Below are positions 22,406 to 23,071 of a DNA stretch of 64,000 nt, piece after piece. Location: the NCBI GenBank assembly GCA_918797485.1, contig CAKKNE010000004.1, positions 1,302,001 through 1,366,000 on the forward strand, given 5' to 3'. Made by a program: the position numbers and the translations under genes. Position 1 is the stretch's first letter. The number at the start of each line of letters is the position of its first letter. Under the pieces are notes generated by a model. The model saw nothing but the letters and a program-made list of their open reading frames with translations, was not told the origin of the DNA and searched no databases. This stretch comes from Pelagomonas calceolata (Eukaryota).

Positions 22406-23071
22406 TCAACAATTAGTCGCGCTCCGGTCGTGGCAGAGCGACGCGACGACGTGCGTGTAGACGCCTAGTTCCATATCGAGGTCCGCCGCGACGCGACGCA
22501 ATAAGGCCCCGAAGAAGTGGATATTTTTGGGAAAGATCGACGCGTTCTGGACCCGTAAGACACCGGTGCACGACAGCCTTCCCTCTTCAACATAGAGGTA
22601 GAGCTCGCGGCAGCATTTGGTCTGCCCTTGGTCGCGCCAGTCGATCGTCTCCGAACCGCTATCGGTGAAGGGGATGGGAATCGAGGCCCGCTTCGAATTT
22701 GAATGCGTCCGGAGGCAGTCGACGGCGTTGGCTATCTTGCGGCGCATGCCTCGCCGATAATCGCCCTGCGCGCCGCCGCGTTCTGGTGTTTTGTATGCAT
22801 CGATTTCCTCGTCTGTTATTTTTTCTTCGAGGTTCCAGCGCGTGTAGAAGTCCAGCGCGGCCCGCGGGAACAGCTCCGTTTCTACCGTCGTGGCGTCTTC
22901 GCTCAAATCCTCGAGCACGGCCGCATAATTATGAATCGTAAAGTCGCCACCGGCTCGCGTGAGGTGCCGCATCTCGTCGTATAAAGAACGCGCCGTTTTA
23001 TGCCTCGGCAGCAGCGCGTGGGCCGGCGCGTGGAGGCGGCGTCTTGCAATTATGGCGGCGCGGCGCAGCAT
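22406..23071 (-). CDS. Divergent thymidylate-synthase-fold protein with putative mitochondrial transit peptide
   Basis: SKRASIPI...KCCRELYLYVEEGRLSCTGVLRVQN...FPKNI...VAADLDMELGVYTHVVASL parallels the TS core; N-terminus MLRRAAIIARRRLH is Arg-rich and lacks acidic residues. Confidence 0.65.
   Translation of the reverse strand: MLRRAAIIARRRLHAPAHALLPRHKTARSLYDEMRHLTRAGGDFTIHNYAAVLEDLSEDATTVETELFPRAALDFYTRWNLEEKITDEEIDAYKTPERGGAQGDYRRGMRRKIANAVDCLRTHSNSKRASIPIPFTDSGSETIDWRDQGQTKCCRELYLYVEEGRLSCTGVLRVQNASIFPKNIHFFGALLRRVAADLDMELGVYTHVVASLCHDRSATNC

Follow-up and report, generated by a model that had tools for sequence, protein, structure and literature searches.

The thymidylate synthase (TS) fold is known to add a methyl, hydroxymethyl or hydroxyl group at C5 of pyrimidines. 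The folate contacts of TS include Asp169, Phe176 and the C-terminus, and Arg126-Arg127 of ThyA form the phosphate-binding pair; T4 dCMP hydroxymethylase keeps Asp169. This enzyme and the CMP 5-hydroxymethylase MilA use folate and carry Asp177 for cytosine. The flavin-dependent 5-hydroxy-dCMP synthases AfhB, RB69 gp48 and DLP3 gp80 (9iqu, 9iqc, 9ir2) also have Asp at 177, together with R-x-Q-N at 166-169 and a short C-terminus. According to PMC13326640, Asn or Asp at 177 selects dUMP or dCMP, respectively, acidic residues at 143 are linked to non-methyl products, and D169N marks the flavin-dependent 5-hydroxy-dCMP synthases; the study took D169N as a potential diagnostic for them and could confirm it in nine other viral homologs.

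Removal of an oxidised C5 carbon is known from a different fold. Isoorotate (uracil-5-carboxylate) decarboxylase of fungi is a metal-dependent enzyme of amidohydrolase fold that acts on the free base. Its substrate, 5-carboxyuracil, is supplied by thymine dioxygenase (PMC4787775).

The window analysed here is a stretch of 64,000 nucleotides from Pelagomonas calceolata, in which an open reading frame on the minus strand, with its ATG at 23071 and its TGA ending at 22406, encodes the 221-residue protein P0001. A sequence-only reading had proposed a divergent, non-canonical TS-fold enzyme with an altered active site and a mitochondrial-looking N-terminus, by analogy with phage enzymes that make modified pyrimidines. 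The features of the gene, residue equivalences being those of the alignments, are:

22406..23071, minus strand: single-exon gene for the TS-fold protein P0001 of the RxQN subfamily (open reading frame, model, structure match, RNA reads)
22390..23170, minus strand: main poly(A) transcript, approximate extent (stranded reads)
23012..23071, minus strand: Arg-rich, acid-free residues 1-20, predicted mitochondrial-type presequence (crude composition rule)
22757..22780, minus strand: RGGxQGDY motif, residues 98-105, a family signature (homolog alignments)
22688..22693, minus strand: K127-R128, aligned with ThyA Arg126-Arg127
22604..22618, minus strand: K152-C153-C154-R155-E156, C153 aligned with the catalytic Cys146 of ThyA
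22544..22555, minus strand: R173-V174-Q175-N176, in place of ThyA R166-S167-C168-D169 (alignment; RSQN in the AfhB type, RAQA in the sister subfamily)
22523..22531, minus strand: P181-K182-N183, N183 aligned with the uracil-selecting Asn177 after a one-residue deletion (selectivity from PMC13326640)

Stranded poly(A) reads from four of four runs, all of one sample, cover the reading frame on the minus strand with zero splice joints; the gene is intron-less and expressed. Read ends pile up at 23169, upstream of the ATG, in one run, which fits a start at 23071 rather than in a longer frame opening with GTG. Low-level minus-strand reads at 23181-23546 of the window, 5′ of the gene and antisense to the start of a GNAT frame, possibly represent a longer 5′ isoform. 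The GC3 of the gene (0.72) is similar to that of its convergent neighbour, an expressed PTP-like phytase/paladin-type phosphatase gene (20995-22377, plus strand) lying 28 bases away, and the same convergent phosphatase/TS-like arrangement recurs in a relative (L082). The window also encodes a fusion of a PHD finger with an FkbM-type methyltransferase (24657-26450, plus strand) and, at 14553-18530 on the minus strand, a long open reading frame in which a periplasmic-binding domain, CUB repeats, a membrane helix and a C-terminal WWE/PARP-like part were noted by eye. Among these window neighbours the phosphatase, the GNAT acetyltransferase and the PHD-FkbM fusion showed no functional link to P0001.

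The TS likeness of P0001 is far above chance. Foldseek with its AlphaFold model (pLDDT 92) placed dCMP hydroxylase AfhB of phage HY126 first (E 1.4e-13), MilA next and ThyA third, and VIA-align over 48,161 chains gave Z 19.4 for AfhB (rmsd 2.9, 188 residues aligned), 17.2 for MilA, 14.7 for ThyA and 4.5 for the best non-TS fold; T4 dCMP hydroxymethylase scored 14.0, with MilA represented by 5jnh and 5b6d, and ThyA together with the TS domain of DHFR-TS spanned 13.3-14.7. At the sequence level, phmmer with P0001 alone reached PDB 9iqu at E 0.0017, and a 100-sequence profile, again with AfhB on top, reached E 1.7e-9. P0001 itself had no match in Pfam, PF00303 included, or among NCBIfam TS models; PF00303 matched 11 of 28 family members weakly (best E 2.5e-5), and ESM Atlas returned only generic TS clusters for the family. 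Fold, Cys146 and Arg166, the marks of the TS superfamily, are all present, and P0001 is a member of that superfamily with a confidently predicted TS fold, as the earlier reading had expected.

The active site was aligned with ThyA of bacterial genome G001 and with the AfhB-type protein of phage AV117. Every motif that the earlier reading had listed was located: SKRASI (126-131), KCC (152-154), LYLYVEEGRLSC (157-168), RVQN (173-176), PKNI (181-184) and VAADLDMELGVYTHVVASL (194-212). C153, in the proposed KCC nucleophile site, aligns with Cys146, and K127-R128, R173 and N183 align with Arg126-Arg127, Arg166 and Asn177, the last across a one-residue gap. Y105 is likely the counterpart of ThyA Tyr94, in a stretch where the alignment is weak, and in the Glu58 region the two alignments disagree with each other. 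RVQN does stand in place of RSxD, and neither HxY nor a DHFR domain is present. Across the family Met/Val (subfamily I, that of P0001) or Ala (subfamily II) replaces Ser167, Asn (I) or Ala (II) replaces Asp169 and Lys replaces Phe176, and His207, Tyr209 and the Arg21 loop have been lost. Just 49 residues follow Arg173 in 141 of 164 proteins of subfamily I, compared with 99 in ThyA, and about 50 C-terminal residues of ThyA are missing from P0001. Over 28 diverse members of both subfamilies Y76, N80, G103, Y105, L120, K127, R128, K152, C153, R173, Q175, K182, N183 and G203 are invariant, C153 and R173 being invariant in the family alignments as well; among 296 proteins selected by the R173, Q175, K182, N183 pattern, K152 occurs in 295, C153 in 296, R155 in 293 and E156 in 292. 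This pattern would suit covalent chemistry at C6 of a uracil ring in the absence of the usual folate. Phosphate binding by K127, R128 and R173 appears to be retained, a feature that sets P0001 apart from the fungal salvage route, which uses the free base.

One alternative, a divergent mitochondrial dTMP synthase, would account for the fold, for Cys146, Arg166 and Asn177, for the mitochondrial-type N-terminus and for the 'thymidylate synthase' labels that databases give to relatives. The losses of Ser167, Asp169, His207/Tyr209, the Arg21 loop and the ThyA C-terminus make dTMP synthesis by P0001 unlikely, neither RSxD, nor HxY with its long tail, nor a PF00303 or NCBIfam TS match is found in it, and the bacterial carriers of subfamily I retain ThyA or ThyX. 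Diatom homologs, moreover, lack the presequence. Residues 1-20 of P0001 hold five Arg/Lys and no acidic residue, with low model confidence at residues 1-6, and P0001 passes a crude presequence rule that asks for at least 3 Arg and no acidic residue among residues 1-20. So do 28 of 92 homologs that begin with Met, pelagophyte and dinoflagellate proteins among them, and the named diatom proteins fail. Mitochondrial targeting, which the earlier reading had suggested, is plausible for P0001 by composition and limited to certain lineages. A mitochondrial dTMP synthase is, on balance, very improbable. The earlier view that the enzyme is non-canonical held up.

The closest resemblance is to the AfhB type, the top match by sequence, profile and structure, which shares with P0001 the catalytic Cys, R-x-Q-N with Gln at 168, and the short C-terminus. 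P0001 might on this basis be a uracil counterpart of AfhB or RB69 gp48, a flavin-dependent C5 hydroxylase converting (d)UMP and O2 to 5-hydroxy-(d)UMP or acting oxidatively on a 5-carboxy or 5-formyl substrate. Met, Val or Ile at 167 and Asn at 169 occur in 100 of 100 aligned homologs of P0001, N176 being the residue that matches D169N. P0001 is thus of the uracil type, by Asn at 177, and a bearer of the D169N mark, which the sister subfamily lacks. Several differences weigh on the other side. P0001 and AfhB are only 16% identical; the tested D169N enzymes all act on dCMP, whereas N177D is absent and N183 invariant; P0001 has lost Ser167 and has neither the Arg21 loop nor an HxF motif; and K152, R155, E156, K182 and RGGxQGDY are extra features of a mostly eukaryotic family that the AfhB type lacks. 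In the sister subfamily 131 of 132 proteins have Ala at 169, within an otherwise common core. 5-Hydroxyuracil is a mutagenic lesion, hard to explain as a housekeeping product of an alga. We regard flavin-dependent hydroxylation as the main rival reading, though on the unlikely side.

Likeness to MilA, the second structural match, and to T4 dCMP hydroxymethylase extends to the catalytic Cys and a non-Leu residue at 143, and raises a second option: a folate-dependent UMP/dUMP hydroxymethylase of the MilA/phage type, whose product oxidases would then carry to the 5-formyl or 5-carboxy stage for a modified base or metabolite. Position 143 is Asp or Glu in 104 of 132 sister-subfamily proteins, but Gln in the subfamily of P0001. 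Instead of the Asp169, Asp177 and acidic 143 of the hydroxymethylases, P0001 has Asn, Asn and Gln; Asp169 is kept in MilA (RAND in the alignment) and in a VPE25 homolog (RSND), and the exchange of Phe176 for Lys and the missing C-terminal tail remove parts with folate roles in TS.

The family comprises two subfamilies, RxQN (I) and RAQA (II), around one invariant core, as defined by their alignments; they differ in the active site at 143 (Q in I, D/E in II), 167 (M/V or A) and 169 (N or A). A first homolog search returned 156 sequences passing E 0.001, from pelagophytes, diatoms, dinoflagellates and one haptophyte where named, the nearest named relative being a protein of Pelagophyceae sp. CCMP2097 (65%). 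Searching 1.84 billion representatives with a profile returned 213 at E ≤1e-10 and uncovered the second group, which includes a Mantamonas protein. The full motif is present in 315 of 402 proteins, a set that was not dereplicated (179 R-[MVIL]-Q-N, 136 R-[AS]-Q-[AV]). In both trees a single branch separates subfamily I from the rest: the subfamily nests within subfamily II in a quick, midpoint-rooted tree of 78 rows, and the two are sisters (support 93/87) in a 32-row tree rooted on three distant TS homologs with long branches.

Members come from algae and protists, rarely from bacteria, and from some phages. Subfamily I has bacterial members in two genomes, G001 with a ThyA and G002 with a ThyX of its own; these copies (L001:5905-6591 and L002:5650-6600) nest among eukaryotic sequences in the quick tree, and the position of the L002 copy amid insertion sequences suggests horizontal transfer. 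The centre genome was the sole match among 400 scored genomes at the level of Gammaproteobacteria (one further genome was unscored), among 127 genomes of the order of G002 and among 401 at the level of phylum, so that the family is rare in the genome samples searched. Viral scans with subfamily I and with bacterial-clade queries gave no match, nor did a plasmid search; isolated phages yielded only distant TS homologs matched over about half their length. A screen of 7996 candidates returned no longer fused forms and is a weak one, since it missed the known fusion P0265. A literature search, with subscription journals thinly covered and an earlier account therefore possible, found no description of this TS branch; the family is apparently undescribed, and P0001 is a genuine member of it, expressed and conserved.

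Subfamily I loci (the P0001 window, L001 and L002) offered no informative neighbours, and no operon of alcohol dehydrogenase (ADH), aldehyde dehydrogenase (ALDH) and oxygenase type was found around L001 or L002. For subfamily II, a metagenome scan with 14 queries confirmed 151 relatives, of which the best 80 were taken. Sixty-six of 84 loci were analysed after 18 short, partial or duplicate ones had been dropped; clustering at 80% identity gave 40 groups, with neighbours examined for 37 (the L032, L039 and L061 groups had no called neighbours). In 21 of the 40 groups a co-oriented ALDH, 2OG oxygenase or ADH, or an adjacent uridine phosphorylase, lies within 3.5 kb of the TS-like gene, in many cases separated from the matched region by 3-60 bases: ALDH in 12 groups, 2OG oxygenase in 12, ADH in 5 and adjacent uridine phosphorylase in 7. 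The other 19 groups, including the bacterial L033 group of 9 loci, are without these co-oriented neighbours, though 3 of the 19 lacked examined neighbours and several look eukaryotic. ALDH genes near L002 and L077 were not counted, as they lie on the opposite strand and are 33-42% identical to the operon ones.

The fullest operon (L007) encodes a 5′-nucleotidase, ADH, ALDH, the TS-like protein and a DIOX_N/2OG oxygenase; an oppositely oriented uridine phosphorylase gene and a PfkB kinase gene lie alongside. The L019 group has the same order, pieced together from overlapping short contigs, and L030 repeats it minus the first gene on its contig and plus a nucleobase permease; in the same operons the PfkB kinase is fused to a weak queuosine-salvage-like domain (L007:8437-10314, L030:4693-6471). 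The L046 and L051 groups carry several uridine phosphorylases and an ECF transporter, the L046 group also TenA proteins and pseudouridine kinase/glycosidase-type genes. The operon ADH resembles benzyl alcohol dehydrogenase (E 8e-98) more than class III formaldehyde dehydrogenase (6e-64). The TS-fold protein is a constant member of the ADH-ALDH-oxygenase operons, among whose annotated genes no isoorotate-decarboxylase-type gene was found. Because these bacterial operons come mostly from one clade and were fetched with that clade's alignment, they are not independent of one another.

This context, mostly catabolic or salvage in character, points to removal rather than addition of a C5 group. It fits a hydroxymethylase poorly, as uptake and catabolism prevail among the bacterial neighbours (5′-nucleotidase, uridine phosphorylases, TenA, ECF and nucleobase transporters, pseudouridine kinase/glycosidase-type genes), although one group (L026/L027) has a PurU neighbour that counts in its favour. 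Nor does a glycosyltransferase or flavin reductase recur in the ALDH/oxygenase operons, which counts against a flavin-dependent hydroxylase. The PurU gene, the presence of ADH without ALDH in L011, and a convergent formaldehyde-detoxification-type pair in L028/L029 blur the identity of the departing one-carbon species and hint at variants.

The oxygenases provide a further link. The second-best PDB match of the operon oxygenase, after another enzyme (9ovh), is Neurospora thymine dioxygenase (thymine 7-hydroxylase; E 1.8e-43), from which it keeps Arg190, Tyr217, Phe292 and Asn294; given the loss of Asn87 and probably Glu122, it is a relative and at most a possible orthologue. The 744-residue P0265 joins an intact TS-like domain, a degenerate second one and a DIOX_N/2OG oxygenase, and on a diatom-like contig (L063) the oxygenase is convergent with the TS-like gene at 219 bases. 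A second 2OG oxygenase family, unrelated to the operon one, has an HxD...H motif and a prolyl-hydroxylase-like predicted fold. Its member at L014:5130-5972 and six homologs (alignment A7) have no significant Pfam or PDB sequence match, their fold being nearest to prolyl 4-hydroxylases; 7 of 7 lie within two genes of a TS-like gene, which the oxygenase precedes in four bacterial groups. The oxygenase link to the TS-like gene thus recurs outside the bacterial operon clade.

On three phage-like contigs (L003, L076 and L083) a dTMP kinase is followed by the second oxygenase and then by the TS-like gene, and in a reciprocal search each of the 3 viral loci retrieved with this oxygenase had the TS-like gene as its immediate downstream neighbour, two of the loci being new and one the L003 contig again; a search of isolated phages with the oxygenase gave no match. 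The cassette sits among virion genes (L091:9091-11439, L092:6253-8743, L003:4425-6603, L076, L083). The 168.5-kb phage carrier, estimated to be complete, had no match to models of ThyA, ThyX, trimeric dUTPase or dCTP deaminase, the ThyA model being of limited sensitivity because it also missed the carrier's TS-like gene. The cassette is a candidate for a new pathway of DNA base substitution. Adjacency to dTMP kinase recalls base-modification clusters, as a flavin-dependent hydroxylase would predict, and the order kinase, oxygenase, TS-like gene reads naturally as biosynthesis, which favours a hydroxymethylase; with its active site and bacterial context also considered, a folate-dependent hydroxymethylase seems rather improbable for P0001. 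The earlier analogy to pyrimidine-modifying phage enzymes is not supported in the form given, the neighbours of the sister subfamily being mostly catabolic and salvage genes; a role in base modification may still apply to the phage copies and under the flavin-hydroxylase reading.

The reading we prefer, at about an even chance for P0001, is that the enzyme strips an oxidised C5 carbon from the uracil ring, the most probable form being release of CO2 by a 5-carboxyuracil species, and likely works without folate. For P0001's own subfamily we infer substrate, direction, mechanism and the transfer of function; the informative gene context is that of the sister subfamily only. The two oxygenase families, which are unrelated, together with an aryl-alcohol dehydrogenase and an ALDH suggest a path from CH3 through CH2OH and CHO to COOH on the ring, and genes for nucleoside uptake and phosphorylases suggest a pyrimidine nucleoside. 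Upstream oxidation by a 2OG dioxygenase and/or by alcohol and aldehyde dehydrogenases would provide 5-carboxyuracil as base, nucleoside or nucleotide. Cys153 would attack C6 as in TS and C5 would then be protonated; the carboxylate, presumably gripped by the invariant basic residues K152, R155 and K182, which the alignment would place in the vacated folate site, would depart as CO2, and elimination of Cys153 would release the uracil species. Thymine or 5-hydroxymethyluracil would in this way be recycled to uracil. In a variant that takes up somewhat less than half of the weight of this reading, the group would leave as formate or formaldehyde. Cys-mediated chemistry of this kind has a precedent in C5-methyltransferases, which reportedly decarboxylate 5-carboxylcytosine.

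Removal of the C5 group is suggested by the retention of Cys146, Arg166 and Asn177 alongside the loss of folate-side residues, by the core that both subfamilies share, by the neighbours in 21 of 40 groups, by the oxygenase link and by the separate ThyA or ThyX of bacterial carriers. Against it stand the D169N mark in P0001, the uninformative neighbours of subfamily I loci, the 19 of 40 groups without such neighbours, the non-independence of the operons, the thymine dioxygenase residues missing from the operon oxygenase, and the apparent phosphate binding, which the free-base route of fungi would not call for. Confidence is higher for subfamily II, because subfamily I differs at 143, 167 and 169; the remaining weight, beyond the readings named here, falls to other chemistry. 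The likeness to fungal isoorotate decarboxylase, in predicted reaction and in a thymine-dioxygenase-like partner, would be a functional analogy: the P0001 model has a TS fold, unrelated to the amidohydrolase fold, and its reaction is predicted to pass through a covalent Cys adduct. More tentatively, and with less than an even chance, the family as a whole may be a TS-fold C5 decarboxylase serving an unrecognised route from thymine or 5-hydroxymethyluracil to uracil in marine algae, protists and bacteria, the phage cassette turning host dTMP into a non-thymine DNA nucleotide.

Whether P0001 removes a C5 group or hydroxylates uracil with flavin, many 'thymidylate synthase' labels would be mis-annotations; in the latter case, the family would be the first uracil-specific, eukaryotic counterpart of the flavin hydroxylases. 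If group removal is true, the TS superfamily would gain a new reaction, and the decarboxylation step that fungi carry out would have a second solution, unrelated to theirs. A dedicated C5 decarboxylase working through a Cys adduct would also serve as a model of how oxidised C5 groups might be taken directly off DNA bases, a reaction long sought. 5-Hydroxymethyluracil is abundant in the DNA of dinoflagellates and of some phages, and with the enzyme, algae and marine bacteria would be able to recycle thymine or 5-hydroxymethyluracil.
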